From contig JAXGNF010000001.1 in assembly GCA_040768135.1 (NCBI GenBank), positions 16,257-80,256 on the forward strand: DNA of 64,000 nucleotides, in the 5' to 3' direction. The notes below the pieces were generated by a model that ran no database searches, was not told where the DNA came from, and saw only the letters and a list, made by a program, of their open reading frames with translations. The stretch comes from Thermoleophilia bacterium. Lineage in GTDB: Bacteria > Actinomycetota > Thermoleophilia > RBG-16-64-13. Shown here in pieces: positions 23,140-38,258 of this stretch. Each line of letters opens with the position of its first letter. Position 1 is the first letter of the stretch. Made by a program: the position numbers and the translations under genes.

Positions 23140-24984
23140 TTAGACCAGAAGCTCTGCGACCAGGTCATCCAGGCCGTACTTCTTCAGGGTGTCGGGTAGC
23201 GGTATGCCGGTCTCGACATCCCAGCCCATCTGCTCGTAGTAGTTGTCGCGAATCGTATCCCAGTGCTCTCGTATACCAATGCCCGCAGCGGGTCCGTCGA
23301 GTGGGGTGGAGCTGTAGCGGACCGACGGCGCCTCCATCTCCTTGTTGAGGCCGTGACGGAAGTTGAACATCCGCATCAGGTTGACGATGCGAAGGCCCAT
23401 CTCTTTCGCGCTCTCTATGTCCCAATCCCAGCCGGTAACGGCGTTGATGATCTCCAAGGTGAGAGCCAGACTGGGCGTGCAAAGGCGGCAGATACCTAGA
23501 GAATCCTCGACATTGCGGCCTCCGTTGAGCCAGGCGTTCATGGTTGACATAGCAATTGGGTCGAACCGGTCTTTCACTCGTTCCAAGCCTAGGTTGGGCG
23601 GGGTGAACAAATGACCGCCGGTTTCGATGGTGCCGGTATTGGAAAGGCAGGTATCGATGAATTCCGACCAGTGGCCCCGGTGGTCGTGACCGCGGGGAGT
23701 GGCTCCCTTCATGGTGTAGACGCAACAGTCCTGGGCTTCGCCCCCGACCCTCTCGGCCGACCGCTTGGTGCCCTCGGCAAAGAGATCACCGCAGCCTTCC
23801 CGGTGGGCGATCTTTCTCAAGATGGAGGCGACCGCTTCAGAGTCACCCCAGTTCATCTCGATCCCGTCAAAGTCGTCTGTGGTCAAGTAGCCTTTTTCGT
23901 AGCACTCCATGAACCAGGCGATCATGTAGCCTGATTCGTTGATGTCGAGCCCCAGCCGGTCGACGAGATTGCAGAGATAGAACGTGTCGGCCGGATCAGT
24001 CATGCCGATCAGGGGTCCCATCTCGGCCGTTCCCTCGTATTCGGGTTCTTCGCCGACGAAACCGGCGTACCGCCCCTCCGGCAACTGCGAGATACGGCAA
24101 TGGGCGATAGAGCACATCCAACAGGCAGAGGGTTTGTTCGGAAAATGCTCGCGCATGTATTCTGGTGTGTACTTGTTGCCCTCGGGCCAGACATTGGTTG
24201 TGTAATTGCGCATGGGGACTGCGCCCATGGCGGCGAGCGGGACCAATCCAGCGTTGGTGCCGAACTTGACCAGACCGGGGTCGACTTCCTCGGTGAACTT
24301 GGCCAGCTCCTTCGCCTTGGCCACCAGGAGCTCGGGATTCTCCACCCGGGGCTTCACATTGCCTTTGACTGCCGAGAAGCACTTGAGCTTCTTCGAACCC
24401 ATGACCGCGCCTACCCCGTTATGAGCGGCCACGTGGCCACGGTCGCCTACGATCGCTGAAAAACGAACGAGATGTTCGCCTGCGGGACCAATACTGTAGA
24501 CGCTGCACCTACCTTTGGTCTCAGCTTTGACGGCATCTTCGGTCTCCCAGGTGTCCAGTCCTACCAGATGCTCGGCGTCAAGCAGATGGACCGTGCCGTC
24601 CTGGATGTGAAGGCGCGTCCACTTGTCTGCAGCTCCCTGGACGATGACGCCGTCAATGCCGTTCGTCCGCATGAAAGCGCCCATGAACCCGTTGGCCTGA
24701 GCCGTCCCGGCCATGCCGGTGCAGGCCCCGAGAGTGGTGACGGAGAAGGTCCCCGATCCACAAACCCTTGTCCCTGCCAGAGGGCCGGTGAAGAAGGTCA
24801 GCCGGTTTTCAGGATCCGACCACTTCACGCCGGCGGGAACCTCGTCCCAGAGATATTTGGTGGCGAGGCCGGTGCCGCCTACGTACTTAGCGGTAGTCTC
24901 TCCATCGATGATTTCTTCGGTGATCTCGCCGCTTCCGAGGTCGACCCGCAGAATGCGTAATGTGTATGGTCCTTCTCCTGACAT
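23140..24984 (-). CDS. Aldehyde:ferredoxin oxidoreductase family tungsten enzyme (AOR paralog 1)
   Basis: N-terminal ...ILRVDLGSGEI... AOR domain with conserved AOR core motifs. The ATG at 24984 has an AAGGAG RBS. Confidence 0.85.
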   Translation of the reverse strand: MSGEGPYTLRILRVDLGSGEITEEIIDGETTAKYVGGTGLATKYLWDEVPAGVKWSDPENRLTFFTGPLAGTRVCGSGTFSVTTLGACTGMAGTAQANGFMGAFMRTNGIDGVIVQGAADKWTRLHIQDGTVHLLDAEHLVGLDTWETEDAVKAETKGRCSVYSIGPAGEHLVRFSAIVGDRGHVAAHNGVGAVMGSKKLKCFSAVKGNVKPRVENPELLVAKAKELAKFTEEVDPGLVKFGTNAGLVPLAAMGAVPMRNYTTNVWPEGNKYTPEYMREHFPNKPSACWMCSIAHCRISQLPEGRYAGFVGEEPEYEGTAEMGPLIGMTDPADTFYLCNLVDRLGLDINESGYMIAWFMECYEKGYLTTDDFDGIEMNWGDSEAVASILRKIAHREGCGDLFAEGTKRSAERVGGEAQDCCVYTMKGATPRGHDHRGHWSEFIDTCLSNTGTIETGGHLFTPPNLGLERVKDRFDPIAMSTMNAWLNGGRNVEDSLGICRLCTPSLALTLEIINAVTGWDWDIESAKEMGLRIVNLMRMFNFRHGLNKEMEAPSVRYSSTPLDGPAAGIGIREHWDTIRDNYYEQMGWDVETGIPLPDTLKKYGLDDLVAELLV

Positions 24985-25037
24985 GGGAACGTTCTCCTTC
25001 TGTAGTCCCACAGTAGTCCGACACAGGCAGCCTTTCG

Positions 25038-25889
25038 TCAGCCGGCGCCTCCCGACAGGTTGATGTCTTCTCCAGTGATGTACTTTGCCCGGTCGGACAC
25101 CAAGAACGACACTAGGTCGGCGATGTCCTGTGGGGTGCCCAGGCGGCCTAGAGGGATGGGAGGAGGGCCGGCCTGACCCGTGGGGCCTGTCGTACCGGCC
25201 TTCAGCGATTCCTCGACACTGACGCCTCGTTCCGCCGCCTGTCTGGCAACGCTATCGTCGCGGAAATTGGTGTCGAACCCGCCGGGATTGATGGCGTTGA
25301 CGTTAATCTTGTAGGGGGCGAGCTCCATGGCAAGGGTTTTCATGAGACCCAGCAGGCCGTGTTTTGAGGCGGCATAACCGGCTCCTCCCGGGTAGGGCCC
25401 GACGCCGGCCATGGAGGAGACCAAGACGATCTTCTTGCCTTCGGGGTTGGGGATCATGGTCTTGGCCACCTCTTTGCAGACCAAGAAGGCGCCGGTGAGG
25501 TTGATGTCGAGGAGCATCCCCCAGGTCTCCTCATCAAGATCGACTACCGGCACAGGGACCGGGCCGCGTATCCCCACGCAGTGCACCAAGATGTCGATCT
25601 TACCGCACTCTTCGAGGGCCCAGGCCACTAGGGCCTCGACGTCGGCGCTCTTGCTGACGTCGCAGGTCAAGGGAACGCCCTTGCGACCCAGGGCTCGTAT
25701 TTCGGCTACGACGTCGTCCAAGCCCTGCCACCCCTGGTCCTCGGCCCAGATAGTCTTCGGCACGGCGAACTTGTCGGCTACCACCACATCGGCGCCATCT
25801 TTGGCCAATTGCACCGCGATGGCACGGCCCATACTCCGCTTGGCCGCTGCTCCGGTCACCAGGGCGACTTTGCCGGTCAACCCGCTCAT
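25038..25889 (-). CDS. SDR family oxidoreductase
   Basis: TGAAAKRSMG Rossmann motif with a catalytic Y...K. Confidence 0.8.
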   Translation of the reverse strand: MSGLTGKVALVTGAAAKRSMGRAIAVQLAKDGADVVVADKFAVPKTIWAEDQGWQGLDDVVAEIRALGRKGVPLTCDVSKSADVEALVAWALEECGKIDILVHCVGIRGPVPVPVVDLDEETWGMLLDINLTGAFLVCKEVAKTMIPNPEGKKIVLVSSMAGVGPYPGGAGYAASKHGLLGLMKTLAMELAPYKINVNAINPGGFDTNFRDDSVARQAAERGVSVEESLKAGTTGPTGQAGPPPIPLGRLGTPQDIADLVSFLVSDRAKYITGEDINLSGGAG

Positions 25890-26728
25890 AGTAGACCTCG
25901 CTCTCTCAGGTACCCTTCGATGTTGAAGGTGGCCTGTTGGGACAGGACGGGCTGGCCTCCTGCGACGCAGAGAGTCTGCCCGGTCACGAAGTCGGACAGT
26001 TCGGACGCGAAGAATAGGGCAGCCCCCGCGATGTCTTTGGGGGTCCCCATCCTGCCCAGCGGCACCTCGTGTTTTGACACGGCTGCGAAGAACGCGTCTC
26101 TTTCCGGTCCGGGCGGCATCAGGGAATCCCAGAAGGGGGTCTCGATCGGGCCAGGGACGATGGTGTTGACGCAGATATTGAAGGGAGCAAGCTCGAAGGC
26201 GAGGTTCAGGGCGAGCCCCAACACTCCCGCCTTGGCCGCATGGTAGTGGAGGACCGAGACCACCGGAGACACGGCTCCCATTGACGAGACGAAGACGACC
26301 TTACCGGACTGCTTCTGTTTCATGGTGGGAAGGACGCGTTCAGTGACCAGCCAGGGGCCTTTGAGGTTAATGGCAAGTATCCGATCCCACTCGACTTCGT
26401 CAAAGGTGCCGGTCGCTCCGCTTGCGTGGGTGCCGGGGACGCCGCCTGCGTTGTTAATGAGGATGTCGATGGTCCCGAACTCCTCGAGGGTCGTCGCCAC
26501 CATCGTCGCCACCTCGGCACTATTGGTGATGTCGGCTTTGACGGCGAGGGCCTTGCCACCTTGGGCCGCCACCTCAGCGGCCACGTTCTGGGCGCCGTCG
26601 AGGTCAAGGTCGCACAACACTACTCCTGCTCCCTCTTCAGCGAACTTCAAGGCTATGCCTTTGCCCATGCCTTTTGCTCCGCCGGTCACGATTGCCACTT
26701 TGTCTTTGAGCAACATGTTCTGCTCCAT
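25886..26728 (-). CDS. SDR family oxidoreductase
   Basis: VTGGAKGMGKGIA motif; 4-nt overlap with the downstream SDR gene. Confidence 0.8.
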   Translation of the reverse strand: MEQNMLLKDKVAIVTGGAKGMGKGIALKFAEEGAGVVLCDLDLDGAQNVAAEVAAQGGKALAVKADITNSAEVATMVATTLEEFGTIDILINNAGGVPGTHASGATGTFDEVEWDRILAINLKGPWLVTERVLPTMKQKQSGKVVFVSSMGAVSPVVSVLHYHAAKAGVLGLALNLAFELAPFNICVNTIVPGPIETPFWDSLMPPGPERDAFFAAVSKHEVPLGRMGTPKDIAGAALFFASELSDFVTGQTLCVAGGQPVLSQQATFNIEGYLRERGLL

Positions 26729-26753
26729 GTCCGAGGGAGCCGTATAGCGCTCC

Positions 26754-28649
26754 CTATTCTGTTGATAGGACGTCTTCTAGACCGAGGGCGGTGATGCGCT
26801 CTTTCGCTATGGCCCCCGTCTCAAAATCGAAACCCATGGCTTCATAGAACTGTCGTTTGAGACCCTCGGAGTCGATAGTCACGCCCTTGAGGGTTCCTGT
26901 TTGCAATGGAGGGTTGCCCCTAGCGCGTTCGGGCAGCTTGAAGTCGCCGGGTGTGAAGCCCTCGCGTAAGTTGAAGGCGTGGAGGAGGGTGGTGATCCTG
27001 TAGCCCGTCTCCACTATCTCGTCGTAGTCGAGGCCCCAGCCGGTAATCGCGTTCATGCATCCCAGAAAATCCAGGGGCATGCTGTCGATGCCGAAGAGGC
27101 AGGCGCCCGATGTATTGACCCAGTGCTGCCACCCTGCCAGTATGGCATGGTACTTGCCCTTGTCGGTGGGATCATACGGGTCCATTTGGAAGGGGACTCC
27201 CATGCCCGCATACGCCCTTTCGTTGACTCCGCCGTGCTCCGCGAAGGCCGTGCCGCCCCGGGTATGTCTGCCGGGCGTCGAGTCAGAGATATAGGTGGCC
27301 CCCCAACCGGGGAAACAGCGGGGATCATGCATGGCAAGCATCTCGCCTCCCGCGTGCATGGCGAACTGTTCCGCACCCCCACCGATCTTCTCGGCCGCCC
27401 ACTTGGCGCCGTCGGCAAGGATATCGCCGATGCCCTCACGTCGACACATCTTTTCGAGCACTCCCACATGGGCGTCGCTGTTGCCCCAAGTGAGCTCCAG
27501 ACCGTCGGTATCGGCCCTGGTGATGATGCCGTTCTCGTAGCATTCGATGGCGAACGCCACGGTGGCGCCTGCCGAGATGGTGTCGAGCCCGTAGAGGTTG
27601 CAAAGCTCGTTCGCCCAGATGAGCGACTCCATGTCATCGTTGAGACACATGGGCCCAAAGGCAGCCAGCGTCTCGTATTCAGGCTTATGTGTGTCGCTCA
27701 CCGGATATCGACCGTCTTCGACGGTGAGGACTGAGCCACAGGCCACCGGACAGGTCGCACACGCATACTTCTTTTTTACATACTTGGCCATGCCGTTCCA
27801 GGCCACCGAGTCCCACCTGGGCTCGGGGAAGTCTTCGATGTTGTTGCCGCTCCAGTTCTTAATAGGAACGTCGTGATCGTGCATGTGCATGATCATGGCT
27901 CCCGGAGTGCCACCGTGAGTGAGACCGAAGAACATCCCCGAAGGGTTCTCCTTAGTCTCTCGGATCATCTCCTTCATCATGGCTTTGATGGCCGGTCTAT
28001 CGAGGACTTCAGGACGCATGCTTCCTGTGCAGGCGACCGCTTTGAGATTCTTGGAGCCCATGACCGCGCCCAGGCCGGACCGGGCTGCCGCTCTACCCCG
28101 GTCGTTCATCACGGCGGCGATCCGAGCCAGGCGCTCCCCGCCCGGACCGATGACCGCCACCTTCAAGCTCCTATCGCCGTTCTCCTCCCGGATCATCTCC
28201 TCGGCGACGGCGGTGTCCTTACCCCAGAGGTGGCGGGCGTCTTTGAGCTCCGCGGTGCCATCTCGAATAAGCAAGTAGACCGGCTGCTCGGCCTTTCCTT
28301 CGAAGAAGACCAAGTCATAGCCGCCCGCTTTGAAGGCGTTGGCGAAATCGCCCCCGCAGTTCGCGTCGCCCCAGTAGCCGGTCAGGGGCGACTTACCCAT
28401 GGTGGCAAAGCGGCAGGTAGAGTAGACGCCGGAAAGGGTCAATGGGCCTGTGCCTATGCCAAAGATGTTGTCTGGTCCGAGGGGGTCTACACCGGGCCTC
28501 ATGCGCTCCATGATGACCCGGGCGCCGATGCCGTAGCCGCCGACGAACCGCCGGGCGGTCTCCTCCGAGAGCTCCTCTTCGTGGAAGGTCCTGTTTGTCA
28601 GGTCGACGAAAAGGAGCCTCCCCATATATCCGTATCCAGCTCGTGCCAT
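26754..28649 (-). CDS. Aldehyde:ferredoxin oxidoreductase family tungsten enzyme (AOR paralog 2)
   Basis: 631 aa with an AOR N- and C-domain pattern paralogous to 23140..24984. Confidence 0.85.
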   Translation of the reverse strand: MARAGYGYMGRLLFVDLTNRTFHEEELSEETARRFVGGYGIGARVIMERMRPGVDPLGPDNIFGIGTGPLTLSGVYSTCRFATMGKSPLTGYWGDANCGGDFANAFKAGGYDLVFFEGKAEQPVYLLIRDGTAELKDARHLWGKDTAVAEEMIREENGDRSLKVAVIGPGGERLARIAAVMNDRGRAAARSGLGAVMGSKNLKAVACTGSMRPEVLDRPAIKAMMKEMIRETKENPSGMFFGLTHGGTPGAMIMHMHDHDVPIKNWSGNNIEDFPEPRWDSVAWNGMAKYVKKKYACATCPVACGSVLTVEDGRYPVSDTHKPEYETLAAFGPMCLNDDMESLIWANELCNLYGLDTISAGATVAFAIECYENGIITRADTDGLELTWGNSDAHVGVLEKMCRREGIGDILADGAKWAAEKIGGGAEQFAMHAGGEMLAMHDPRCFPGWGATYISDSTPGRHTRGGTAFAEHGGVNERAYAGMGVPFQMDPYDPTDKGKYHAILAGWQHWVNTSGACLFGIDSMPLDFLGCMNAITGWGLDYDEIVETGYRITTLLHAFNLREGFTPGDFKLPERARGNPPLQTGTLKGVTIDSEGLKRQFYEAMGFDFETGAIAKERITALGLEDVLSTE

Positions 28650-28658: not shown

Positions 28659-30761
28659 CTACACGTTCATGGCAGTCCGGAGCCCTGTGCCCACCGCGTC
28701 GGCTATGAGTCCGGGTTGAGCGCAGTCGCCTACCGTGTAAATCTCGGGAACTCGGCCCTCGAGCTTGGCTCTGAGGTCTTCTTTGGCGGTCAAGGGCAGC
28801 GCTGAGACGAAGGTGTCGGCCTGGAGGGTTCTCATCTGGCCTTCCTTGGTGATGATGGTGAGGCCCTCGTCGGTGATTTCTACGTACTCCTTCACTCCCG
28901 AGATCATCTCGACGCCCTTCTTCTTGAACCAGATGGTGAGGTAGCCGAGAAGGGCGGGGACCATGCCCTCACCCAACGTTTCCGCGGTGTCGACGATGGT
29001 CACCTTCCTGCCTCGCTTGACCAAGAACTCGGCCAGCTCACAGCCTTGGAGCGCACCGCCGATCACCACCACGTTTTTGCCTATGCCCGGCATATAGAAT
29101 CGAGTCAGTGATCGTAGGGTGTAGGGCGTAAAGAAGCGTGAGTAGAACTTGAGCTGTTTGTGGAGGTCACCTCCGCTCACTACATTCGGTCCATCGATCC
29201 CTTTGATGGCAGGGACGGTCGGCGAAGCGCCCGTGGCAAGAAAGACCACGTCGGGCTTGAGTTCTTCCACAGTCGAGACATCGGCTTCTTTGCCCAAAAC
29301 CACTTTGACGCCGAGTTTCTTCATCTGCCCTCGCAGGTACTTGACGATCAAAGGCACATCCTCAGGATGCGGTCCTTTGACCATGGCTGCGATCGGAAGC
29401 AGCCCGCCCAGTATGGGGGCTTTTTCATAGAGGGTCACGTCATGGCCTCGCAGAGCCGAGACCCGGGCGGCCTCCATGCCGGCAGGGCCGCCTCCGATAA
29501 CAAGCACCTTCTTCTTGATCTCCGCGTCACGGATGGTGTTGACGGGCAGCCCCATGAGCGCATTGATACGACAGCGCCTGCTGCCGAGGCAGTTGTCGCA
29601 GCCGGTACACGGAGCTATATCGTCCAGCCGGCCCTCTTTGATCTTGTTGACATACTCGGGATCGGCGTGGAGCCGTCTGGTCATACCGATGAAGTCGGCC
29701 ATACCCTGCTCTAGGATCTTCTCACCTAGGTCGCAATCCAGCCTACCCACCACAATGACGGGGATGGAGACCTTTTCTTTGATCCCTGCGGCGAGGAGCA
29801 TGTTGGCACCCGCTCCCTTGCCCTTCGTGTAGTACTCCTTGGGGAAGTTCTTCAGGGGGATAGGTGCATCGGGATAGAAGAGTGCGTCGCACAGGTAGGC
29901 GGCTTCATGGTATCCGATCCAATGGCTGCGCACCATGATGCCATCGGCGCCCGCCTTTTCTATGTACCGAGCGTGTTCCTGGGCCACTTCTGCTGGGATG
30001 CAGGAGCCGTCATCGATGTCGCAGATCTGGCCGACCTCGAGGCCGTTTATGCAGACCGTGACTGGGAAGTCTGAGCCGCACAGCCTCTTGATCTCAGTGA
30101 CGACCTGACAGACGAAGCGGCTACGGTTCTCGGCGTTACCCCCGTATTCGTCCGTGCGTCTGTTCCAGAATGGCGAGAGGAAGTTGTGGAGGAGGTGGCT
30201 GCTCGAAGCATTGATGTCCACCCCGTCGAAGCCCGCCTTCTTTGCCCGAAGGGCACACTGGGCGAACTTCTCCACAACGGCTTCGATTTCGGGGATGGTC
30301 AGCGGGTGGGGGACCTCGTTGTGGAAGTCGGTCTCGCAGGGTACTGTCACGGTTGAGGCGGCGTAGGGCAGGCCGGAGTACGGCGGGTTTGGTACGAAGG
30401 GTAGGTGTACCTGCCAAGTACCGTCATGGTTCATCTGCATGAAGGTCGGGCAACCGTGTTTGTGGATCACGTCAGCGATCTGCGCCATTCCCGGGATGTA
30501 CTTATCGTCATCGAGCCGGTAACGGTCGCGCCAGCGACAGCCTGCCGGGTAGTCGACGGTGGGGGATTCGACGATTATCAGTCCAGTGCCACCTCGCGCC
30601 ATCGCCTCGTAGAAGGCTAGGACCTCGTCTCTCATGACCACGTCGTCTTCATGCCACATCATCACTCCGGCCCCGGTCTTGATGATGCGGTTACGGGTGG
30701 TGACGGGCCCGATGCGGCCCGGTTCGAGCAGCTTCACGTACTTATGGTTACTGTTGGTCAA
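28659..30761 (-). CDS. 2-enoate reductase family flavoprotein (OYE-like + 4Fe-4S + FAD/NAD(P) domain), paralog 2
   Basis: 700 aa; Cys motif CTGCDNCLGSRRC; C-terminal GGGPAG dinucleotide-binding domain. Confidence 0.8.
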   Translation of the reverse strand: MTNSNHKYVKLLEPGRIGPVTTRNRIIKTGAGVMMWHEDDVVMRDEVLAFYEAMARGGTGLIIVESPTVDYPAGCRWRDRYRLDDDKYIPGMAQIADVIHKHGCPTFMQMNHDGTWQVHLPFVPNPPYSGLPYAASTVTVPCETDFHNEVPHPLTIPEIEAVVEKFAQCALRAKKAGFDGVDINASSSHLLHNFLSPFWNRRTDEYGGNAENRSRFVCQVVTEIKRLCGSDFPVTVCINGLEVGQICDIDDGSCIPAEVAQEHARYIEKAGADGIMVRSHWIGYHEAAYLCDALFYPDAPIPLKNFPKEYYTKGKGAGANMLLAAGIKEKVSIPVIVVGRLDCDLGEKILEQGMADFIGMTRRLHADPEYVNKIKEGRLDDIAPCTGCDNCLGSRRCRINALMGLPVNTIRDAEIKKKVLVIGGGPAGMEAARVSALRGHDVTLYEKAPILGGLLPIAAMVKGPHPEDVPLIVKYLRGQMKKLGVKVVLGKEADVSTVEELKPDVVFLATGASPTVPAIKGIDGPNVVSGGDLHKQLKFYSRFFTPYTLRSLTRFYMPGIGKNVVVIGGALQGCELAEFLVKRGRKVTIVDTAETLGEGMVPALLGYLTIWFKKKGVEMISGVKEYVEITDEGLTIITKEGQMRTLQADTFVSALPLTAKEDLRAKLEGRVPEIYTVGDCAQPGLIADAVGTGLRTAMNV

Positions 30762-30794: not shown

Positions 30795-31274
30795 TCACTT
30801 GTTCCACCGCGACTTGTCCACTGTATAGGCCTCGGCCTCCACTTCGGGGGGCGAGGCTTCCCAGAAGAAGCGGATCGTATCTATTTTGAGCGCGCCGCTA
30901 TCATCGAGCGAGAGCTCGTATAACGGCAGATAGTCTTTCTCCACCTTCACCAGATCGGTGGACGTCTCATAGATCGTGGCCCGAACGAAGGCCACCGCCA
31001 CCATCCGTTTCTCGTCGACGAAGATGTCGTGGACCACGAATCGCTCGTAGTCCTCTGGGTGGCCCGTCAGCATGTTATAGAAATCCTCGCGGCTCTTGAT
31101 GGCGTTTTGAGGCCCGCCGAACAAGTACATGTAGGGGATGAAGGTGAGGTTGGGTGCAAAATACTTGTCCATGGCGTGGACGGTCTTGGCGTCTTGGGCG
31201 CTGGCGTTGTATTCAGCGAAGTAGTCCTTCATCCACTGAACGATCTCGTCATATGTCGGCTTCATGCTCTTCAT
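30795..31274 (-). CDS. NTF2-like (SnoaL/ketosteroid-isomerase-like fold) small protein, paralog B
   Basis: 159 aa, PTYDEIVQWMKDYF...; clear paralog of the adjacent 31320..31832 gene. Confidence 0.45.
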   Translation of the reverse strand: MKSMKPTYDEIVQWMKDYFAEYNASAQDAKTVHAMDKYFAPNLTFIPYMYLFGGPQNAIKSREDFYNMLTGHPEDYERFVVHDIFVDEKRMVAVAFVRATIYETSTDLVKVEKDYLPLYELSLDDSGALKIDTIRFFWEASPPEVEAEAYTVDKSRWNK

Positions 31275-31319
31275 CCTCTGATGATTTGCCGGGCCTCTCG
31301 TCCGAGGTCCGGGGGCGGG

Positions 31320-31832
31320 TTATGCGTACTTACGTTGAGGTCCCTCCGGGTTGTTCTTCCAATCGCGTTCAAACACGTCGTCGATCTCGAGTGCTCCGGC
31401 CGGCAGGATCTCCCAGAAAAAGTCGAGACGCTCGATCTTGATGGTCCCGTCTTCCTCCACCAGTGGATAGCGGCACAGATAGCGCTTGGTAAGCAGCAAC
31501 TCCTGGGTGTCGCGGTCGATGATGTCGGTCCTTATTTGGGCTACGAAGACCAGCCGCCGCTCGTCGATGACCAGATGTTCGGGTGTCAACCGCTCAATTC
31601 CCGAGGGATGCGAGGTCAGCACCTTGTACCAGTTGTCTCGACCCTCTACCTTGCCCACGTAGGCGATGAAAGGGTTGTACACGACATCTTTCGAGAAATA
31701 CTTGTCCATACGGTGGATCTCGGCTGGGTCCTGGCCGTATTTGTTGAACTCGTCGAAGTATTCGTCGATCCAGGCGGCAAGTTCGTCATAAGTCGGTTGC
31801 ACGGTTGCGTCCTCCCGGTTGCGGGATGCCAT
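31320..31832 (-). CDS. NTF2-like small protein, paralog A
   Basis: 170 aa, PTYDELAAWIDEYF...; start overlaps the stop of the upstream cupin gene by 1 nt. Confidence 0.45.
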   Translation of the reverse strand: MASRNREDATVQPTYDELAAWIDEYFDEFNKYGQDPAEIHRMDKYFSKDVVYNPFIAYVGKVEGRDNWYKVLTSHPSGIERLTPEHLVIDERRLVFVAQIRTDIIDRDTQELLLTKRYLCRYPLVEEDGTIKIERLDFFWEILPAGALEIDDVFERDWKNNPEGPQRKYA

Positions 31833-32311
31833 CAGAAGTTCTTTACGTAGTTCGGATCGTTGGCCGCTTCGAACATGAAGATAGGGGTGTCGATCCTCTT
31901 GATCGTGATGGGACAGTGCTCCACTCCTTTGGGGACGAAGATGAGGCAGGTCTTGGTGACCGTGTGTTTCTCTCCGCCTATGTTGACCTCGATCTCTCCG
32001 CCCAGATCGCGTGGATAATTGCGGTTGGTACCCCCGAAGCCGATGACTTCATCGAAGTCGTGGGTGTGCGGTATTTCGATGTCGACCGGCTTGCCTCCAG
32101 GCAGCCCCCACAGTATCTCGCACCCCACGAAGAGCGGACATCCGGGAACGATGGAGTCCATGATCCCCAAGAGCATCGTCCTGTCGAGGATCTTTCCCTC
32201 CTTGGCCTGGTCTTCCATGGCCTTGACCATGGCCTCAGGCATGGGAGGCATCCGGTCCTCGGTAAGGAAGTACTTTCCGTACTTGGATTCGGTCCTCTCC
32301 GGTTCGGTCAT
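31832..32311 (-). CDS. Cupin-fold metal-binding protein, paralog B
   Basis: Cupin motif 1 PHTHDFDEVIGFGG and motif 2 PKGVEHCP. Confidence 0.55.
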   Translation of the reverse strand: MTEPERTESKYGKYFLTEDRMPPMPEAMVKAMEDQAKEGKILDRTMLLGIMDSIVPGCPLFVGCEILWGLPGGKPVDIEIPHTHDFDEVIGFGGTNRNYPRDLGGEIEVNIGGEKHTVTKTCLIFVPKGVEHCPITIKRIDTPIFMFEAANDPNYVKNF

Positions 32312-32775
32312 CTTGTTTCTCCTTGTTCCATTTTTTCCCGATGGCCACCCGGGTCGGCTTCGGCAAGGCTGCCGGCTCCGATCATCACCGTCATCTCCAG
32401 ATGGGGTCTCGTGAACCTTTTCCAGGTTAGCGGCCCGTGTTTCACTCCTTTGGGGACAAAGACCGAGGAGGTCTTGTTGATGATGAGGGCCTTGCCGTCG
32501 ACCATGAATTCGATCTCCGCTCCCAAGTCTTCTTGATCTTCGGGGTCGATGCCCACATGCATCACGATCTCGTCGTAGTCATGGACGTGTTCCCCGATGT
32601 GTGGATTGGGATCCGGCATCGCTTTTATCCAGCCGACCTCCACGTACATGTTCGTTCCGGGGACGAGGTTGTTGCTCATAAGGGTCATTGCCGGTATACG
32701 TCCTGCCACCTCGAAGGCTGGGATCACCTCATAGGCCGGGCTGCGCACGAAATATCTCTCAGCGTCGAGTGCCAT
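32308..32775 (-). CDS. Cupin-fold metal-binding protein, paralog A
   Basis: EHVHDYDEIVMHVG and PKGVKHGP; 4-nt overlap with paralog B. Confidence 0.55.
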   Translation of the reverse strand: MALDAERYFVRSPAYEVIPAFEVAGRIPAMTLMSNNLVPGTNMYVEVGWIKAMPDPNPHIGEHVHDYDEIVMHVGIDPEDQEDLGAEIEFMVDGKALIINKTSSVFVPKGVKHGPLTWKRFTRPHLEMTVMIGAGSLAEADPGGHREKMEQGETR

Positions 32776-34204
32776 AGTGCTCCGTCCTTTCTAGTAGCTC
32801 GCCCGTCTTCCCGGGGTGGTTCAGTTGCTGCCCGTCACAGGCGACTACATATTTCTGCATGAGTCGCAGCGCTTTTGCCGGTTCACTCTGGGCCAAGAGG
32901 CCCAAGGCGAAAAGCACGTAATCAGCGTCGAGCATGAACTGGGGTGCCTTGGGCTTGAGTAGCAGGGGGTACGCTGTATCGAACACCGCCCCTGCCAACA
33001 CCTCGGCCGGGTCGGCCGAAAACGACACCGGTCCACCGGCCCCCACCACCCATCGTAACTGGGTGAGGTCTTTGCCTCTTTGTACAACGACCTCCCCGTC
33101 GGGGGTCACGATGTGTTTCAGCGAACCTACGTGTCTATCGACCGCGGAGCGTACGGCCACCTTGGCAAGGAGTAGATGGCAGGCGGTCTGCTCATCCCCG
33201 CTGGGGACGCTGTTTTCCCGACACATGACGGCCACCAAGTCGTCGAAGTTGTCGGGTAATTGCTCCATCTCCGCTATCGTCTGCAGGGTATCGAGGTTAT
33301 GGAACAGACCCAAGTCGCCCTCCACAGTGCGCTTGGCGTACGGCTCGGCCAAGCCGAGGAAACGTACGGTACCGGAGGTGGGTGCCCCCGTGGCGACGGA
33401 GTAGACATCAGTTGTGGCCCCACCAACATCGACCAGAAGCAGTTCACCTATGCCCTGGTGGCCGTCGGTGCCGTCGGCCAGAAGCTTCGCGGCTTCGAGC
33501 ACTGCGGCCGGGGTAGGCATGATGACATCGGCTATGAGGCTCCGGGCCCGGCTGATGCCCTTCGCTTCAGTGATCCGGGCGATGAAGAGATCTCTGATCT
33601 TATGGTTGGCCGCGTCAACTTCCAAGATGCCGATCTCAGGCATGACGTTGGTAGTGAAGAGGACGTTTTTGCCCGAGCCGGCGAATAAGGCCTCGACGTC
33701 GTCATAGGCCGACTTGTTGCCGGCGACGATGATGTTGGTGATGCGGGAGCCCGCTCGAGCCAGCAACGTTGCGTTGTGAGTAATGACTTTCTTATTGCCG
33801 CCGTCGGTGCCCCCCGTAAGGAGGACTATGTCGGGAGCGATCTCTTCGATCTCTCGCAGTTCGCGTTCTGACAATTCGAAAGAGTACGAAGCCACTATCT
33901 TGGCCCCGGCTCCTAGAGCGGCTCTGCGACCGGCCTCGGTGGTGTAATCAGGCACCAAACCTACGCACACGACCCGGAGTCCGCCGGCCGCGCTACTGCA
34001 AGCCACGGTCTGTCGTCGTTCGGTCTCTCCGAAAGGAACTTTCTCGGCGAGGAGCGCGAAAGCCTCTTCGAGGGCGATCGTCACATCTCGGTCGACACTG
34101 GAAGGCACCTGCACCCGACCGATGAGCTCCTCGGCCTCCAGGTCGAATGCCACCAATTTGGTGAAAGTACTGCCGAAATCGACGAAGAGCCGTGTGCTTG
34201 TCAC
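32759..34204 (-). CDS. glmL: MutL/GlmL family protein (glutamate mutase accessory ASKHA-type ATPase, putative reactivase/chaperone)
   Basis: N-terminal VDFGSTFTKLVAFD signature; ~480 aa; sits immediately downstream of glmS. Confidence 0.65.
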   Translation of the reverse strand: MTSTRLFVDFGSTFTKLVAFDLEAEELIGRVQVPSSVDRDVTIALEEAFALLAEKVPFGETERRQTVACSSAAGGLRVVCVGLVPDYTTEAGRRAALGAGAKIVASYSFELSERELREIEEIAPDIVLLTGGTDGGNKKVITHNATLLARAGSRITNIIVAGNKSAYDDVEALFAGSGKNVLFTTNVMPEIGILEVDAANHKIRDLFIARITEAKGISRARSLIADVIMPTPAAVLEAAKLLADGTDGHQGIGELLLVDVGGATTDVYSVATGAPTSGTVRFLGLAEPYAKRTVEGDLGLFHNLDTLQTIAEMEQLPDNFDDLVAVMCRENSVPSGDEQTACHLLLAKVAVRSAVDRHVGSLKHIVTPDGEVVVQRGKDLTQLRWVVGAGGPVSFSADPAEVLAGAVFDTAYPLLLKPKAPQFMLDADYVLFALGLLAQSEPAKALRLMQKYVVACDGQQLNHPGKTGELLERTEHYGTRR

Positions 34205-34235
34205 TACGGTCTACCTGTCGACGAGGGCCATCAGT

Positions 34236-34673
34236 CTATAGTTCACGGACGCCGGTCCGTCTACGACCGAGGTCGGCTTTCAGGTCTTCGATGGCCAACC
34301 TCACATCGGTCTCAGGGGGATAAACACGGTCGAAACCCATCCGCCTGAATTTGGCCTCGTCTTCGGGAAAGTTGCGTCTGGACACACCCAGAATGCCCCC
34401 GATATAAAGGATGATGTCCTCCAGGCCGGCCTCGGTGCATTTATCGCGGAAACCCTCGAGGTCCAACTCGGCCATGCCGTAGAGCGAACTGATCATCATG
34501 GCGTCGGCCGCCGTCTCTTGGGCAGCCATGATGAACTCTTCCGGCGGAGTCTGAGCACCTAACTCCACCACCTTGAACCCTGCCTCCCGGAGGGCTCGGG
34601 AGACGATCTTAGTCCCGATGACGTGGGCATCGACTCCGACGGTCCCTGTGATGACGCAGCCTATATGGTCCAT
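34236..34673 (-). CDS. glmS: Glutamate mutase sigma subunit (methylaspartate mutase S chain), cobalamin-binding Rossmann domain
   Basis: DxHxxG motif (GVDAHVIG) and ...SSLYGMAELDLEGFRDKCTEAGL...GG...FRRMGFDRVYPPET... closely match clostridial GlmS/MutS (recalled from memory). Confidence 0.8.
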   Translation of the reverse strand: MDHIGCVITGTVGVDAHVIGTKIVSRALREAGFKVVELGAQTPPEEFIMAAQETAADAMMISSLYGMAELDLEGFRDKCTEAGLEDIILYIGGILGVSRRNFPEDEAKFRRMGFDRVYPPETDVRLAIEDLKADLGRRRTGVREL

Positions 34674-34707
34674 CGTTCTTTCGTCCTCGCTCTCGGACTA
34701 GGATTTG

Positions 34708-35619
34708 TCAAACCGCGACCTCACAGGGGAGACCGCGGGCTTCTACGATATTGCAGGCGGCCTGCATGAATGCCGGTGACGGCGTTTCGGCGGTCGCCAG
34801 TTCATAGTCGAGTCCCAGCATGTCGTACTTCTGCTGACCATAACGGTGGTAGGGGAGGAGGTGTACCGTCGCTCGGGGAGCGTGGGTGGCCACCATCTCG
34901 GTGATATCGGAAATGGCATCGCTTGTGTCGTTGAAACCCGGGACTACCGGTATGCGCACTACCAGGGATACGTCGCTCGCTGCCACCTCGTCAAAATTAC
35001 GTAGGATGGCTTCGTTTGAGCAGCCGGCTTGGATCCGGTGGATTTTTGGATCGATGTGTTTGATGTCGAAGTAGAAGAGATCAGTGTAGGGGATGATCCG
35101 CCGCAGTGCTTCAAGGCTACCTTGTCCCGAGGTGTCGACGCATGTGTGGAAACCCGCCTCGCGACACCTCTTGAGGAGAGCCACGGCGAATTCGGGCTGC
35201 ATAAGGACCTCTCCACCCGACAAGGTGATACCTCCACCTGAGTCCTCATAGAAGTCGGCGTCGCGTTCGAGGACGGCGAACACCTCGGCATCCGTCATCT
35301 CCTTGCCTGTGATACGCATGGCGTCATGAGGACAGGCATCGACGCAATCCCCGCATACAGTGCAGGCGTCGCGGTCGATCACAATACCGTCTGAGCCTAC
35401 CGTGATGGCGCCCCCGGGACAGGCGGTCACACACCGATAGCACCGTTTACAGAGGGAGTCGCGGTGCATGAGTTCGGGAATGATACTCTGGGACTCTGGG
35501 TTCGAACACCACACGCAACTCAGAGGGCAGCCCTTGAAAAAAACCGTAGTCCGGATACCCGGACCATCGTCGATGCTGTACCTCTGGATGTTAAACACGA
35601 TCCCCGTCACCGTTGCCAC
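34708..35619 (-). CDS. Glycyl radical enzyme activating enzyme (radical SAM) with a two-[4Fe-4S] ferredoxin-like insert
   Basis: CPLSCVWC radical-SAM motif (CxxxCxxC variant) plus CKRCYRCVTACP and CTVCGDCVDACP clusters, the glycerol-dehydratase/BSS-type activase architecture. Confidence 0.85.
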   Translation of the reverse strand: MATVTGIVFNIQRYSIDDGPGIRTTVFFKGCPLSCVWCSNPESQSIIPELMHRDSLCKRCYRCVTACPGGAITVGSDGIVIDRDACTVCGDCVDACPHDAMRITGKEMTDAEVFAVLERDADFYEDSGGGITLSGGEVLMQPEFAVALLKRCREAGFHTCVDTSGQGSLEALRRIIPYTDLFYFDIKHIDPKIHRIQAGCSNEAILRNFDEVAASDVSLVVRIPVVPGFNDTSDAISDITEMVATHAPRATVHLLPYHRYGQQKYDMLGLDYELATAETPSPAFMQAACNIVEARGLPCEVAV

Positions 35620-35702
35620 TGCTGCTCACTCCTCGACGTCATCATGGGGGAAGCGGACGCGCCGCCCATGCGGGCGGCGCGTCCGCGTAGAATAATCCCG
35701 TA

Positions 35703-38258
35703 CTAACCTACCTCATGCATGGTCCGCTCAACGATCTCGTCCTGCAGCTCGGGCGGTAGGTCGACGAAGTAAGCGCTGTAGCCCCCTACACGGACCAGTA
35801 GGTCCTTATGGGCTGCCGGTTCTTTGCGCGCCTCCACGAGTTCTTCGACACTGTGGATGTTGAACTGGATGTGCCAGCCCCCACGTTTGGTAAAAGTCTT
35901 GATGAGAGAAGACACTTTGCTCAACTTCTCCGGACTGTTAAGCACGGCCTTGGAGAACTTCATGTTGTGGGCTACTCCGGCGCACTCGTACGGGGTCGGG
36001 TACTTGGTGGCCGAGAGGATCAGGGCGGTTGGGCCGTTGACGTCGCCGCCCGGCATGGCTGAGGTGCCGCCATCGTAGATGGGGGTACCGGCATAGCGCC
36101 CGTTGGGCATCGCACCCACGGCTTTTCCCTGTGTCACATGGCCGGCCGCCGCACCCTTGAACAACATGGGTTTCTCGCCGGTGATGGGGTCGGGACGGCT
36201 TTGCAGGATCCCCTGAGTATCCCGGGATAGCCGGACGTACCAGTCGTCCACATAGTCGTCATCGTTGCCGTATTTGGGGGCTTTGAGGCACATCTGACGG
36301 ATATCCTCATGGCCCTCCCAGTTGGCGTCCATGGCGTCCAACAACTGGGCCATGGTGATCTTTTTCTCGTCGAACACCAGGTATTGGACGGCCGCCATGT
36401 AGTCGGCGCAGTCGCAAATGCCTTTGTCGCCCACCCAGGAGGCCTTGCCGATAGGGTAGCGGCAGCCGCCTTCGCGTGAGGCCAACCCGGCCGGGATACA
36501 GTCACGGAAGAGCATGCCGGCGCGTAACCCGCTCATCGGGCTGTTGGCGATCTCGCTGGTCCACCAGATGAAGTAGTGGTCACGCATCTTTTCCGCGAAG
36601 TAATCCTCCTGCTTGAGAAAGGCTTCGTAGAGCTGTTCGATGGATGTGAACGTTCTCGGGTCGCCGGTGTGCAGGCCCACTTGCTTGCCCGTGCGGGGGT
36701 CGAAACCGTCGTGGAGCGTGACTTCCATGACTTTGGCCTGAACAAGGTTGAAGGCTCCAGCCATGTGTTCGGCGCATTCCAAATGGTAGCCGAGGCACCC
36801 GCTTGCACTCCAGTTGCAGGCATCCTCTATGGGCACACCTCGGTCAAGGTAGCGGCGGGTCCCCAACTCGTCGTTCAAGAAGGCAGGATTACCCCCACCG
36901 AACTCGCGGTTGCATTCGAGCGCATGGATGATGAAGTTCTCGTCCTGCTCGTCGTGATAGCGGACGTAAACGGCCGGCTCCGATAGGTGGACCTGAGCCA
37001 TAACCTCGAGGATCATCCAAGAGAGCTCATTGGTGAGATCGTTGCCGTCTTTGTCTCGGCCGCATAGAGTGACGTTGGGCAGTTGGCTACCGGGAGCGGC
37101 GCGGTGCTCGCGCTTGATGGTGACCAAGTTCTCGACTTCGCGGATCTTCAGCCACATGGCGCCTATCAGCTCAGCTGCCTGCTGGCGGGTAAGGTTCCCG
37201 CTCTCGATATCGGCCTTGTAGTACGGGTACCAGAATTGGTCGATCCGTCCGATCCCCACCTCAGCTCTTTCGGGGCTCTCTTTCCAGGCGGCCAGATGCA
37301 TGAAGCGCACCGATTGGACGGCTTCCCAGAAGTTGCGAGGCGGCTCAGCGGGTACATGTTCACATACGTCCGCGATCTTCTCGAGCTCGGCCTTGCGGAC
37401 CGGGTCAGTCGTTGTGGCGGCCATCTCACGGGCCAGAGCGGCATGTCGCTTGGCAAAATTGATTACGGCCTCGAACATGATGACGATGGACTTGAGTAGG
37501 TACCACTTGCGGAGGGCGTTGACGCTCGAGCGGTCCTCCAACGCGCCTTCAGCCTTCATCTTCTCCATCTCGGCCTTGGCCAGACCGATGACGTGCCTGA
37601 AGCCGAGCCTCAACACCTCGCCGGAAAGCATGATCACGCCGCCGCCCATAGCGCCGTAACCCTGGAAGAGGCCCCGGTCGGGGTTCTCACGCACGCCGCG
37701 GCCCTCGAGGATCATCGCGTGGTCGAAGAGGAGGTCGAAGTGCTCTTTGCCGAGCTCTTCTTCAAGGGCCACGTTCACATAGTTGACCGGGTTCATGTGT
37801 TCGACCCAGTATTCGGCGTCGGCTGTAAGCTTCTCCAGATCTTCGGGGTCGATGACCGTCGAGGAGATATCACTCAGCTTGCGGTCGAAACGGCCACTTT
37901 TGCACATGGCCAAGATCTCACGGGGCTTCACAGCGCAAAGGGTGTTGTTGCCGCGGATGAACTTCGTTGACGAGCCTACGATGATCTCGTCGTCGCGAAT
38001 CAGGATGGGACAGTTCTCCATCCTCTTCTCGAACGCCTTGGCCCAGCGGAAGTCGACCGGCATCTGCTCGGTCTCTTTCCAGGATTCGGTGAACAGCAGT
38101 GTGTCGTCTACATAAACCTGTGGAGCGGCGTCTTCCCACTCCTTCTTCAGCTTATTGAGACGATCGGTCATGACGACTACCGATTTGATCTCTTTTGCGG
38201 CGTCCGGGTGGATGGTGCCTTGGATCACGGGGGTGATGTTCGAGGATTCCACTGCCAT
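35703..38258 (-). CDS. Glycyl radical enzyme (pyruvate formate-lyase superfamily) of unknown specificity
   Basis: 851 aa with a C-terminal glycyl-radical motif RVGGYSAYFVDL...Q.EIVERT and a Cys loop ...EDACNWSASGCLGY.... Confidence 0.9.
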   Translation of the reverse strand: MAVESSNITPVIQGTIHPDAAKEIKSVVVMTDRLNKLKKEWEDAAPQVYVDDTLLFTESWKETEQMPVDFRWAKAFEKRMENCPILIRDDEIIVGSSTKFIRGNNTLCAVKPREILAMCKSGRFDRKLSDISSTVIDPEDLEKLTADAEYWVEHMNPVNYVNVALEEELGKEHFDLLFDHAMILEGRGVRENPDRGLFQGYGAMGGGVIMLSGEVLRLGFRHVIGLAKAEMEKMKAEGALEDRSSVNALRKWYLLKSIVIMFEAVINFAKRHAALAREMAATTTDPVRKAELEKIADVCEHVPAEPPRNFWEAVQSVRFMHLAAWKESPERAEVGIGRIDQFWYPYYKADIESGNLTRQQAAELIGAMWLKIREVENLVTIKREHRAAPGSQLPNVTLCGRDKDGNDLTNELSWMILEVMAQVHLSEPAVYVRYHDEQDENFIIHALECNREFGGGNPAFLNDELGTRRYLDRGVPIEDACNWSASGCLGYHLECAEHMAGAFNLVQAKVMEVTLHDGFDPRTGKQVGLHTGDPRTFTSIEQLYEAFLKQEDYFAEKMRDHYFIWWTSEIANSPMSGLRAGMLFRDCIPAGLASREGGCRYPIGKASWVGDKGICDCADYMAAVQYLVFDEKKITMAQLLDAMDANWEGHEDIRQMCLKAPKYGNDDDYVDDWYVRLSRDTQGILQSRPDPITGEKPMLFKGAAAGHVTQGKAVGAMPNGRYAGTPIYDGGTSAMPGGDVNGPTALILSATKYPTPYECAGVAHNMKFSKAVLNSPEKLSKVSSLIKTFTKRGGWHIQFNIHSVEELVEARKEPAAHKDLLVRVGGYSAYFVDLPPELQDEIVERTMHEVG

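Follow-up and report, generated by a model that had tools for sequence, protein, structure and literature searches.

A glycyl radical enzyme paired with a glutamate-mutase-like B12 enzyme in a catabolic gene island of an uncultured Thermoleophilia bacterium

Overview

Thirteen minus-strand genes at positions 23140-38258 of a 64,000-nucleotide stretch of contig JAXGNF010000001.1 (assembly GCA_040768135.1, Thermoleophilia bacterium; the whole stretch is called the window) encode a glycyl radical enzyme (GRE) with its radical S-adenosylmethionine (SAM) activase, the small subunit (GlmS) and accessory protein (GlmL) of a B12-dependent mutase, and cupin, NTF2-like, Fe-S ene-reductase, aldehyde:ferredoxin oxidoreductase (AOR) and short-chain dehydrogenase/reductase (SDR) proteins. 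They form the middle part of a catabolic island, 45-48 kb long and on the minus strand, in an uncultured Actinomycetota bacterium (Thermoleophilia/Gaiellales-like). The island also encodes the large mutase subunit (GlmE). The conserved core is the trio of GRE, activase and mutase; the other genes vary by lineage. Both radical enzymes depart from their characterised relatives in the active site. The GRE-mutase module probably functions as one pathway. The best overall reading, to which about even weight is given, is an undescribed anaerobic pathway in which a plant-derived carboxylic acid is processed by two successive radical enzymes.

The mutase and its active-site signature

The B12-binding small subunit had been described in an earlier note, made from the letters of this DNA, without its large subunit. 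It is not an orphan, since a GlmE gene is present in the same window (Table 1). The encoded protein aligns end to end with the E subunit of the Clostridium cochlearium enzyme (357 bits) and keeps Arg66, Arg100, Arg149 and Glu330. Glu171 is replaced by Pro and Tyr177 by Trp, and the surrounding motif WTSNEGGGISYNVPY is rewritten to MNAFPNSFFGWIAGY. In the C. cochlearium enzyme, Glu171 contacts the amino group of the substrate. Because these two residues are changed with the three carboxylate-binding arginines kept, the substrate is probably not glutamate.

The signature is a property of the GRE-linked subtype. All 29 GRE-linked GlmE homologs (29/29) combine R66/R100/R149 with P171/W177. A HMMER search of 1.84 billion cluster representatives (clusters at 50% identity) gave 185 GlmE-like clusters at E<=1e-30, among which the window subtype is a tight clade; scores fall from 513 to 351 bits outside it. 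The canonical signature R66/R100/R149/E171/Y177/Y181 is found in only 32 of 113 full-length GlmE-like representatives, the rest showing many other combinations, and such non-canonical members may be mis-annotated. Some representatives also lack Arg66 or Arg149, the family being much more diverse than glutamate mutase.

The likeness to glutamate mutase (GlmE/GlmS/GlmL of C. cochlearium and C. tetanomorphum; 1cb7, 1i9c, 6h9e) includes the end-to-end alignment of E, the DxHxxG His-on motif of S, the presence of a GlmL gene and the carboxylate arginines. The differences are P171/W177, the frequent fusion of E and S, and the location beside a GRE instead of in a glutamate-fermentation operon. Methylaspartate ammonia-lyase (methylaspartase) is absent among the Pfam matches of the scanned window open reading frames (ORFs). 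Canonical glutamate fermentation was rejected on the active-site signature and on this absence.

The active site of the GRE

The radical glycine of the GRE is G826, in R823-V-G-G-Y. The Cys loop reads S486-G-C488-L-G490-Y-H492, in which Gly replaces the glutamate of the Cys-X-Glu (CXE) motif. C488-L-G490 aligns to C-V-E of HpzG, HypD, HplG and HpyG, and C488 aligns to the catalytic Cys of these enzymes and of the arylacetate decarboxylase AAD. In 17 family members (58-89% identity) the C, L and Y of the loop are invariant and the G and H at least 90% conserved. According to a 2026 review (Imrich et al., PMC13450708), CXE is kept in all C-O, C-N and C-S GRE eliminases and in the new isomerases; its Glu is hydrogen-bonded to the substrate and is essential where tested. 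The same review reports an essential Gln484 in the decarboxylase PAD, which we infer to occupy the Glu position. The Cys loop of AAD (7e7l), G-G-C-V-L-H, is also without the Glu. The GRE is not a standard "C-X cleaving" eliminase, because the CXE glutamate is absent.

Other substrate-contacting residues have changed as well. The sulfonate-binding Arg678/Val680 of IslA align to Leu699/Gly702 of the GRE, within the invariant stretch KPMLFKGAAAGH. The strand aligned to this region (K-P-M-L-F-K-G-A-A-A-G-H) is invariant in the family and, judged from its residues, suggests a roomy, apolar wall. The GRE also has several invariant arginines where IslA binds anionic groups. The absent eliminase Glu, the small-residue apolar wall and the invariant arginines favour a C-C step on a carboxylate. 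That the GRE performs such a step rather than an elimination is tentatively proposed.

No NCBIfam equivalog is reached by the GRE, all matches being below half of the cutoff. The scores are 481 bits for HypD, 454 for CutC, 397 for HpsG and 377 for HpfG (cutoffs 1000-1100; HypD, 1000); for the decarboxylases they are 405 against 1100 (IAD) and 305 against 1150 (HPAD). With the eliminases and isomerases (HypD, HpzG/HpyG, CutC, IslA/IseG, HpsG, glycerol dehydratase, HplG) the GRE shares the domain layout, the radical Gly motif, the position of the catalytic Cys, an activase with two ferredoxin domains and, in some lineages, neighbours acting on alcohols or aldehydes. It differs from them in the Gly at the CXE position and in the sulfonate-, amine- and diol-binding residues, which, where they could be mapped, are not kept. 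With the GRE arylacetate decarboxylases (AAD, PAD) it shares the lack of a Cys-loop Glu, which in PAD rests on the position given above to Gln484; AAD is also without an accessory subunit. These decarboxylases act on carboxylates, and some of the loci studied here hold an aromatic-acid transporter. The match to AAD is 313 bits only, the comparison covering the Cys loop (C-V-L-H in AAD, C-L-G-Y-H here), and the known GRE decarboxylases, unlike this GRE, are not linked to mutases or redox genes.

Linkage of the GRE and the mutase across phyla

The GRE was searched in one genome per species, and 80 loci with this GRE were returned (loci are designated by L numbers). For the linkage counts, 33 dereplicated loci were used in which the GRE has 6 kb or more of sequence on either side, partners being scored within 10 kb. 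An activase is found in 27 of these loci and at least one mutase component in 24 (GlmS, 22; GlmL, 21; GlmE, 15). The GlmE count leaves out loci of the Actinomycetota layout, whose GlmE is farther away than the flank retrieved. The gene immediately after the activase is a GlmE::GlmS fusion (~640 aa) in many loci of Bacillota, Desulfobacterota, Spirochaetes, Bacteroides and Acidobacteriota. Mutase-linked loci are labelled Actinomycetota, Bacillota, Desulfobacterota, Spirochaetes, Bacteroides, Synergistaceae and Acidobacteriota (at least seven phyla). S subunits and S domains encoded beside GRE homologs elsewhere share 64-92% identity with the window GlmS.

The reciprocal scan, started from GlmE in metagenome contigs, found the P171/W177 type in 56 of 80 loci. 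Ten P171/W177 loci are well flanked; seven of them carry a GRE of the CLGYH type and one more has the Actinomycetota layout.

Several GRE loci without a mutase are second copies, the same genome also holding a mutase-linked copy (L053/L062, L075/L085, L074/L076). Second copies of the same clade in Oscillospiraceae, Sporobacter and Papillibacter (L053, L075, L084) are accompanied by a PrpD-like protein, a zinc-dependent alcohol dehydrogenase (Zn-ADH) and a metallo-beta-lactamase-fold protein, with no activase or mutase nearby; in L075 three aldehyde dehydrogenases (ALDHs) follow.

Recurring partners in other genomes

In Oscillospiraceae, including Sporobacter and Papillibacter metagenome-assembled genomes (MAGs), the order is a putative PucR/CdaR-type regulator (assigned from reading the sequence only), a nitroreductase, a family III CoA-transferase, two iron-dependent alcohol dehydrogenases (Fe-ADHs), GRE, activase, GlmE::S and GlmL. 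Some of these loci continue after GlmL with a fused bicupin, an SDR and an Fe-S ene-reductase of the type of OYE2 (Table 1). Each half of the bicupin matches one of the two cupins of the window. The functional set common to Actinomycetota and Oscillospiraceae is GRE, activase, GlmE/S, GlmL, bicupin, SDR, Fe-S ene-reductase and an AOR or alcohol dehydrogenase; its presence in two phyla argues that the parts work together.

The single partners recur more widely. AOR1 orthologs (66-67% identical) adjoin GlmL and GRE in a Bacteroides sp. SM23_62 MAG (L034) and a Deltaproteobacteria MAG (L047), and a Bathyarchaeia contig has the order GRE-activase-SDR-AOR. The OYE2 subtype follows the GRE or a bicupin-SDR pair in many Bacillota, Desulfobacterota and Synergistaceae loci. 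FAD_binding_2 proteins are encoded beside GRE homologs in Actinomycetota, Bathyarchaeia and Dehalococcoidales, and GltD/NuoF-like proteins beside the GRE in a Spirochaetes locus (L040). In nine of the well-flanked loci a PrpD-like gene comes after the mutase or activase. The order activase-GlmE-GlmS-GRE-GlmL-PrpD-HydA-HydB-SDR of two Actinomycetes contigs (L018, L019) ties the far-upstream block of the window to the GRE. That block (IclR regulator, PrpD-like protein, hydantoinase A/B and AOR3, 54380-63894) is also conserved with GlmE in metagenome loci L094-L100. TRAP genes are found near the GRE in L023, L070 and L076, and MFS transporters also recur. The operon itself includes an aromatic-acid:H+ symporter gene in L024 and L025, followed by a CoA-transferase or by acyl-CoA dehydrogenases.

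The carriers come from termite gut, rumen, digesters, a tar biofilm and soil. Sporobacter termitidis DSM 10068 carries the GRE-mutase module (L052). Methoxylated aromatics, whose rings it cleaves, are the only growth substrates of this species (PMC4585845).

Proposed pathway

The GRE and the mutase would act in sequence on one carboxylic-acid skeleton. Since the arginine claw is retained and the amino-group ligand lost, the mutase may interconvert a 2-substituted glutarate and a 2-substituted 3-methylsuccinate, the substituent being non-amino and probably apolar. The specific substrates considered were glutarate/methylsuccinate, 2-hydroxyglutarate, 2-methyleneglutarate, tricarballylate, alpha-aryl diacids, truxillic acids, isoflavone-derived 2-arylpropionate and quinate, of which none is put forward here. 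By analogy with the arylacetate decarboxylases, the GRE may catalyse a decarboxylation or beta-scission of a branched or alpha-substituted acid, without a Glu base, and the mutase would supply or remove the branching for this step. The accessory enzymes would make the diacid from a precursor that is cyclic or unsaturated. In this scheme C=C bonds would be reduced by the Fe-S ene-reductases and the FAD_binding_2 flavoprotein, and ketones and alcohols interconverted by the SDRs. The cupin and NTF2 proteins might epimerise or tautomerise intermediates, an aldehyde would be handled by the AOR (by Fe-ADH/ALDH in other lineages), and the PrpD/iminodisuccinate (IDS)-epimerase-like protein might epimerise or decarboxylate a polycarboxylate.

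A plant-derived aromatic or hydroaromatic acid is a possible feedstock, proposed at somewhat under even confidence. The support is circumstantial: the transporters, the VprA-like and LigM/DesA-like neighbours, the habitats and the physiology of S. termitidis. In a broader proposal, which is rather unlikely to hold in full, a new GRE class and a new GlmE-type substrate class working in series would provide the key steps of an unrecognised fermentative route that breaks down lignin- or polyphenol-derived aromatic acids. At the same low confidence, this route would operate in termite guts, rumen, digesters, soils and sediments, for instance in the ring cleavage of vanillate-derived catechols by S. 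termitidis.

Alternatives and counter-evidence

Several observations weigh against the proposed pathway and are given here with the alternatives on which they bear. The first is that the GRE is more like the eliminases than like any decarboxylase or X-succinate synthase. Among solved structures the top match is 8iof (384 bits); the eliminases score 384 (HpzG), 384 (CutC), 380 (HpsG), 374 (IslA), 368 (HypD) and 361 (glycerol dehydratase, GD), against 313 for AAD, 287 for MasD, 260 for TutD and 201 for HPAD. The closest matches to the Cys-loop region are HypD and HplG. The GRE may still be a 1,2-eliminase or isomerase with another base, which is the main rival and is considered somewhat unlikely. 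The missing Glu could be replaced by Tyr491 or His492, or its role taken by a substrate carboxylate. An alcohol dehydrogenase (ADH), SDR or AOR would make a hydroxy substrate, the GRE would eliminate a vicinal group from it to leave an aldehyde or ketone, an AOR or ALDH would oxidise the product, and the mutase would act up- or downstream on the resulting dicarboxylate. Alcohol and aldehyde enzymes beside a GRE are typical of eliminase clusters; the known clusters pair the GRE with such enzymes. Here, the GRE of Oscillospiraceae is immediately preceded by two Fe-ADHs, and AOR, ALDH or Zn-ADH genes are nearby elsewhere. The characterised eliminases and isomerases nevertheless all keep the CXE Glu (PMC13450708), which is Gly across this family, and no NCBIfam eliminase equivalog is reached at even half its cutoff.

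The GRE could instead be a hydroalkylase of the X-succinate synthase (XSS) type, adding a C-H compound (for example an ethyl- or methyl-phenol produced by the VprA-like reductase) to fumarate. The PrpD/IDS-epimerase-like protein would then epimerise the substituted succinate, and the GlmE-like mutase would straighten the skeleton as the free acid. This alternative is judged very improbable. Its chemistry needs no catalytic Glu, and it accommodates the retained dicarboxylate claw and replaced amino-group pocket of the mutase, the epimerase of a substituted succinate among the nearest PrpD-like structures, the family III CoA-transferase and acyl-CoA dehydrogenases near some loci, and the VprA-like reductase upstream in the window. 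It also has a model: in the anaerobic alkane and ethylbenzene pathways a GRE has been proposed to be paired with a carbon-skeleton mutase, an X-succinate synthase being followed by an epimerase and then by a B12 mutase. The logic would be the same here, a GRE followed by B12 rearrangement of a substituted dicarboxylate with an epimerase between. In those pathways, however, CoA esters are rearranged by a mutase resembling methylmalonyl-CoA mutase and the GRE comes with small Fe-S subunits, whereas here the mutase is of the GlmE-like, free-acid type and the GRE is single-subunit and distantly related to XSS. MasD (287 bits) and TutD (260) score below the eliminases, and the Cys-loop match to TutD and MasD is poor (15-19 bits, over a longer stretch of those chains). 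No gene for an XSS-like small Fe-S (beta/gamma) subunit lies beside the GRE in the window or in the inspected related loci; only 83 nt separate the GRE from the activase gene downstream of it, and the small ORFs upstream of the GRE have no family match. The hosts, moreover, are mostly fermenters from guts and digesters. A GRE paper on limonene was set aside because it concerns a BssA-like XSS, which is unrelated; in a paper on uric acid, GREs appear among the references only.

The linkage is strong in both directions, as the forward and reciprocal counts show, but it is not absolute, since some loci lack a partner. No mutase is found in 9 of the 33 well-flanked GRE loci, GRE and activase are alone in a Thermoleophilia MAG (L002; 83% identity), and in two P171/W177-type GlmE loci (termite-gut contigs) the 8-10 kb around GlmE hold no GRE. 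Genes that are neighbours in a MAG may also belong to separate modules that were transferred together. The window GlmE just passes the NCBI methylaspartate-mutase equivalog TIGR01503 (406 against 390), so that automatic annotation would probably mislabel it, and GlmS and GlmL also pass their NCBIfam glutamate-mutase cutoffs. These facts would fit a mosaic, made of an independent GRE with its activase, an ordinary glutamate mutase and redox genes for other substrates, as would the 18 kb of other genes between GlmE and GlmS in the window and the variation of the accessory genes between lineages. Such a mosaic is nonetheless quite unlikely in view of the active-site signatures and the reciprocal linkage: every GRE-linked GlmE has P171/W177 and no canonical-type cluster does, and fusion genes directly follow the activase in distant phyla. 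The missing methylaspartate ammonia-lyase family in the Pfam scans of the window proteins and the shared accessory set of two phyla also count against it.

For the feedstock, the weak point is that the aromatic link is circumstantial, resting on sub-threshold family matches and the physiology of one isolate.

Organisation of the window

All 13 ORFs listed by the earlier note are present at 23140-38258 with domain assignments that agree with it, and the tiny gaps and overlaps that it reported are borne out (-17 to +83 nt). The 13 genes are a real operon. No fewer than nine contigs of related Actinomycetota, from MAGs or metagenomes, repeat the order GRE-activase-GlmS-GlmL-small genes-OYE1-AOR1-SDR-SDR. 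The nearest GRE homologs (87-93% identity) come from MAGs labelled Actinomycetota, Gaiellales or Thermoleophilia. Positions 21823-42312 are 99.7% identical to MAG contig GCA_040770985.1 JAXGIE010000004.1 (L088). The alignment has 12 gap positions, and the AOR1 and SDR1 genes are broken into fragments there; as both genes are intact in the window, these breaks are probably assembly indels and not pseudogenes.

The description as an anaerobic redox and radical gene cluster stands. The idea of a self-contained 13-gene unit does not, because partners lie outside these limits: the PrpD-like, hydantoinase A/B, GlmE, OYE2, FAD_binding_2 and GltD/NuoF-like genes, which are outside the 13-gene span here, are adjacent to the GRE in other genomes. 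The minus-strand run extends from about 63.9 kb to 15.6 kb of the window (63894 upstream; TRAP genes at 15573 downstream), and on the downstream side the close packing goes on as far as OYE2. Upstream of the GRE the gene order is IclR regulator, PrpD/MmgE-family protein, hydantoinase A/B pair, AOR3, GlmE homolog, Liv-type ABC transporter, aldo-keto reductase, ABM protein, LigM/DesA-like aminomethyltransferase-fold protein, NuoF-like and GltD-like Fe-S flavoproteins, FAD_binding_2 flavoprotein and SDR. Downstream of the 13 genes lie a URO-D-like protein, a second Fe-S ene-reductase (OYE2) and a TRAP transporter. The coordinates are given in Table 1.

Table 1. Features of the minus-strand island. 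Positions are those of the window; (-), minus strand. Bits are given with the cutoff of the model where there is one.
Feature	Position	Strand	Characteristics
MmgE/PrpD-family protein	61751..63169	(-)	Nearest solved structures: iminodisuccinate epimerase, IRG1, cis-aconitate decarboxylase
Hydantoinase A/B pair	57232..61730	(-)	Caprolactamase/acetophenone-carboxylase-like, with acetone-carboxylase gamma domain
AOR3	54380..56272	(-)	Third AOR-family gene, directly upstream of GlmE; CX2CX3C
GlmE-like mutase large subunit	52765..54225	(-)	486 aa; PF06368 Met_asp_mut_E 1e-145; 14.5 kb upstream
GltD-like 2Fe-2S/4Fe-4S/FAD protein and NuoF-like protein	41682..44962	(-)	
FAD_binding_2 flavoprotein	40217..41668	(-)	Top NCBIfam match, vinyl phenol reductase VprA, below cutoff
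SDR0	38781..39620	(-)	Between FAD_binding_2 flavoprotein and GRE
Sigma-70-like promoter match	38351..38379	(-)	TTGACA-17-AAGAAT; ~95 nt upstream of GRE start; consensus match only
GRE	35703..38258	(-)	851 aa, uncharacterised clade; PFL-like PF02901 4.8e-162, Gly_radical PF01228 8.7e-26
GRE activase, radical SAM	34708..35619	(-)	303 aa; TIGR02494 354 bits (cutoff 174); C31x3C35x2C38; two ferredoxin-like Cys clusters
GlmS-like B12-binding mutase S subunit	34236..34673	(-)	NF002612 183 bits (cutoff 110); D15-A-H17-V-I-G20 (DxHxxG)
GlmL/MutL-type mutase accessory protein, putative reactivase or chaperone	32759..34204	(-)	NF040745 517 bits (cutoff 475)
Cupin A	32308..32775	(-)	155 aa; H63-V-H-D-Y-D-E; P108-K-G-V-K-H
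Cupin B	31832..32311	(-)	159 aa; family 65-100% identical across phyla; elsewhere fused with cupin A-like half (bicupin)
NTF2-like protein A	31320..31832	(-)	170 aa
NTF2-like protein B	30795..31274	(-)	159 aa; SnoaL_2/ketosteroid-isomerase-like fold; PF12680 recorded on homologs
OYE1	28659..30761	(-)	FMN (old yellow enzyme, OYE) and FAD/NAD(P) Fe-S ene-reductase, FadH/BaiCD/enoate-reductase type; Cys motif C385x2C388x2C391x5C397
AOR1	26754..28649	(-)	AOR family, AFOR_N and AFOR_C; closest to P. furiosus AOR (1aor); CX2CX3C
SDR1	25886..26728	(-)	Homologs 41-61% identical near GRE in many phyla
SDR2	25038..25889	(-)	
AOR2	23140..25011	(-)	AOR family; atypical CX2CX4C for presumed 4Fe-4S cysteines (CX2CX3C in AOR1 and AOR3)
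URO-D-like protein	21384-22751		455 aa; URO-D-like domain on C-terminal half only; no NCBIfam match; N-terminal 200 residues without family
OYE2	18932..20968	(-)	Second Fe-S ene-reductase; classic CX2CX2CX11C motif
TRAP transporter (DctP, DctM, DctQ)	15573..18698	(-)	Candidate carboxylate uptake system

Consensus matching found no terminator-like site in the intergenic space of the coding strand. The Rfam search gave no riboswitch or other RNA family, and there are no tRNA genes. Three gene-free gaps are unusually long for such a packed strand: 56273-57231 (959 nt), 38259-38780 (522 nt) and 39621-40216 (596 nt). Their small ORFs (including ones of 92 and 91 aa) match no family; the gaps are possible regulatory regions or could hold unrecognised small genes or RNAs. 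A 109-aa ORF at 22839-23168, which overlaps AOR2, and an ORF at 20978-21253 are probably not genes, since they match no family, have an odd composition and show partial homologs at most.

Small cupin and NTF2-like genes

The Pfam matches of the four small ORFs are only sub-threshold, and additional tests were therefore made. The two pairs of paralogs claimed by the earlier note are upheld: the cupins are 37% and the NTF2-like proteins 36% identical to each other, and both cupins have the HxHx3E and PxGx2H metal motifs. AlphaFold2 (AF2) models, computed with an alignment of homologs as input, have a pLDDT of 82 for the cupin and 87 for the NTF2-like protein. Foldseek matches the former to MarH, KdgF and EutQ and the latter to NsrQ, ketosteroid isomerase, BaiE (4l8p) and SnoaL2, with probability 1.0 throughout. 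The GC content at third codon positions (GC3) of the four minus-strand ORFs is 0.69-0.80, like that of the flanking genes, and 0.58 for the rival antisense ORFs. Substitutions relative to close relatives are mostly at codon position 3 of the minus frames (252/366 and 200/291). The longer plus-strand ORFs 31029-31850 and 31805-32536 were rejected as antisense artefacts by GC3 and substitution pattern.

Cupin B (159 aa) is 65-84% identical among homologs labelled Actinomycetota, Acidobacteria, Spirochaetes and Dehalococcoidales, which is unusually high for a small protein. Such identity points to strong constraint, to a recent horizontal spread of the module, or to both.

Redox and other accessory genes

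The AORs have AFOR_N and AFOR_C domains with the cluster cysteines. A BamB-type ring reductase was considered for them and rejected for AOR1 (352 bits to P. furiosus AOR, 194 to BamB). No ferredoxin is encoded next to the AORs, as the earlier note had remarked; yet the GltD-like and NuoF-like proteins are encoded upstream, and this pair is a candidate electron-input module, with no small ferredoxin.

The run 40217-46350 is tight and contains, with the NuoF-/GltD-like and VprA-like proteins, a homolog of LigM/DesA-like tetrahydrofolate-type O-demethylases (172 bits, below cutoff); it gives a hint of methoxylated phenylpropanoid metabolism. The 455-aa URO-D-like protein could be corrinoid-dependent methyltransferase-like. 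The TRAP genes are in the unusual order DctP-DctM-DctQ. There are two separate sets of Liv-type ABC transporter genes (4710-9414 and 47814-52639), and a GntR regulator, an AMP-forming ligase, an EamA transporter and an MFS transporter are encoded between 9.6 and 15.5 kb.

Comparison with other systems

The accessory genes recall the bai toolkit (BaiA SDR, BaiCD/BaiH, BaiE/BaiI NTF2), the families being the same; OYE1 and OYE2 match BaiCD at 307-371 bits, far below the equivalog cutoffs. The 13 genes differ from bai in having no CoA ligase, and bai is without radical enzymes and AORs.

In the nicotinate fermentation of Eubacterium barkeri, a 2-methyleneglutarate mutase works with the GlmL-like protein MgmL. 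The shared feature would be a B12 mutase, with a GlmL-type helper, that turns a non-amino 2-substituted glutarate into a 3-methyl-branched C4-diacid. To our knowledge, the E. barkeri mutase is not GlmE-like in its substrate domain. That pathway has no GRE, and nicotinate dehydrogenase and enamidase genes are lacking here.

The statement of the earlier note that no characterised pathway has this combination of genes is in line with the results, no GRE equivalog being reached and no paper with the pairing being found. In the searchable literature no paper was found that links a GRE to glutamate or methylaspartate mutase, and nothing relevant on GREs together with adenosylcobalamin, termites or Sporobacter. 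No such GRE class is listed in the 2026 review (PMC13450708). Neither the non-CXE GRE clade, the P171/W177 GlmE clade, their conserved pairing with GlmL nor the accompanying bicupin/NTF2/ene-reductase/AOR set was found in curated family libraries and the searchable literature. The cluster is not a new kind of molecular system, because each protein belongs to a known superfamily.

Significance

GREs and B12 mutases are the two main ways in which anaerobes perform difficult radical chemistry, and we know of no earlier description of a conserved pairing of the two. If the pair does act on one substrate, the GRE would represent a new reaction class and the mutase would be the first GlmE-type enzyme with a non-amino-acid substrate; the module has a real chance of holding both. 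The existence of a cultured carrier, S. termitidis DSM 10068, makes the question testable, and CLGYH and P171/W177 are signatures for mining and mutagenesis. The module could fill a gap in the degradation of plant aromatic and hydroaromatic acids by strict fermenters.

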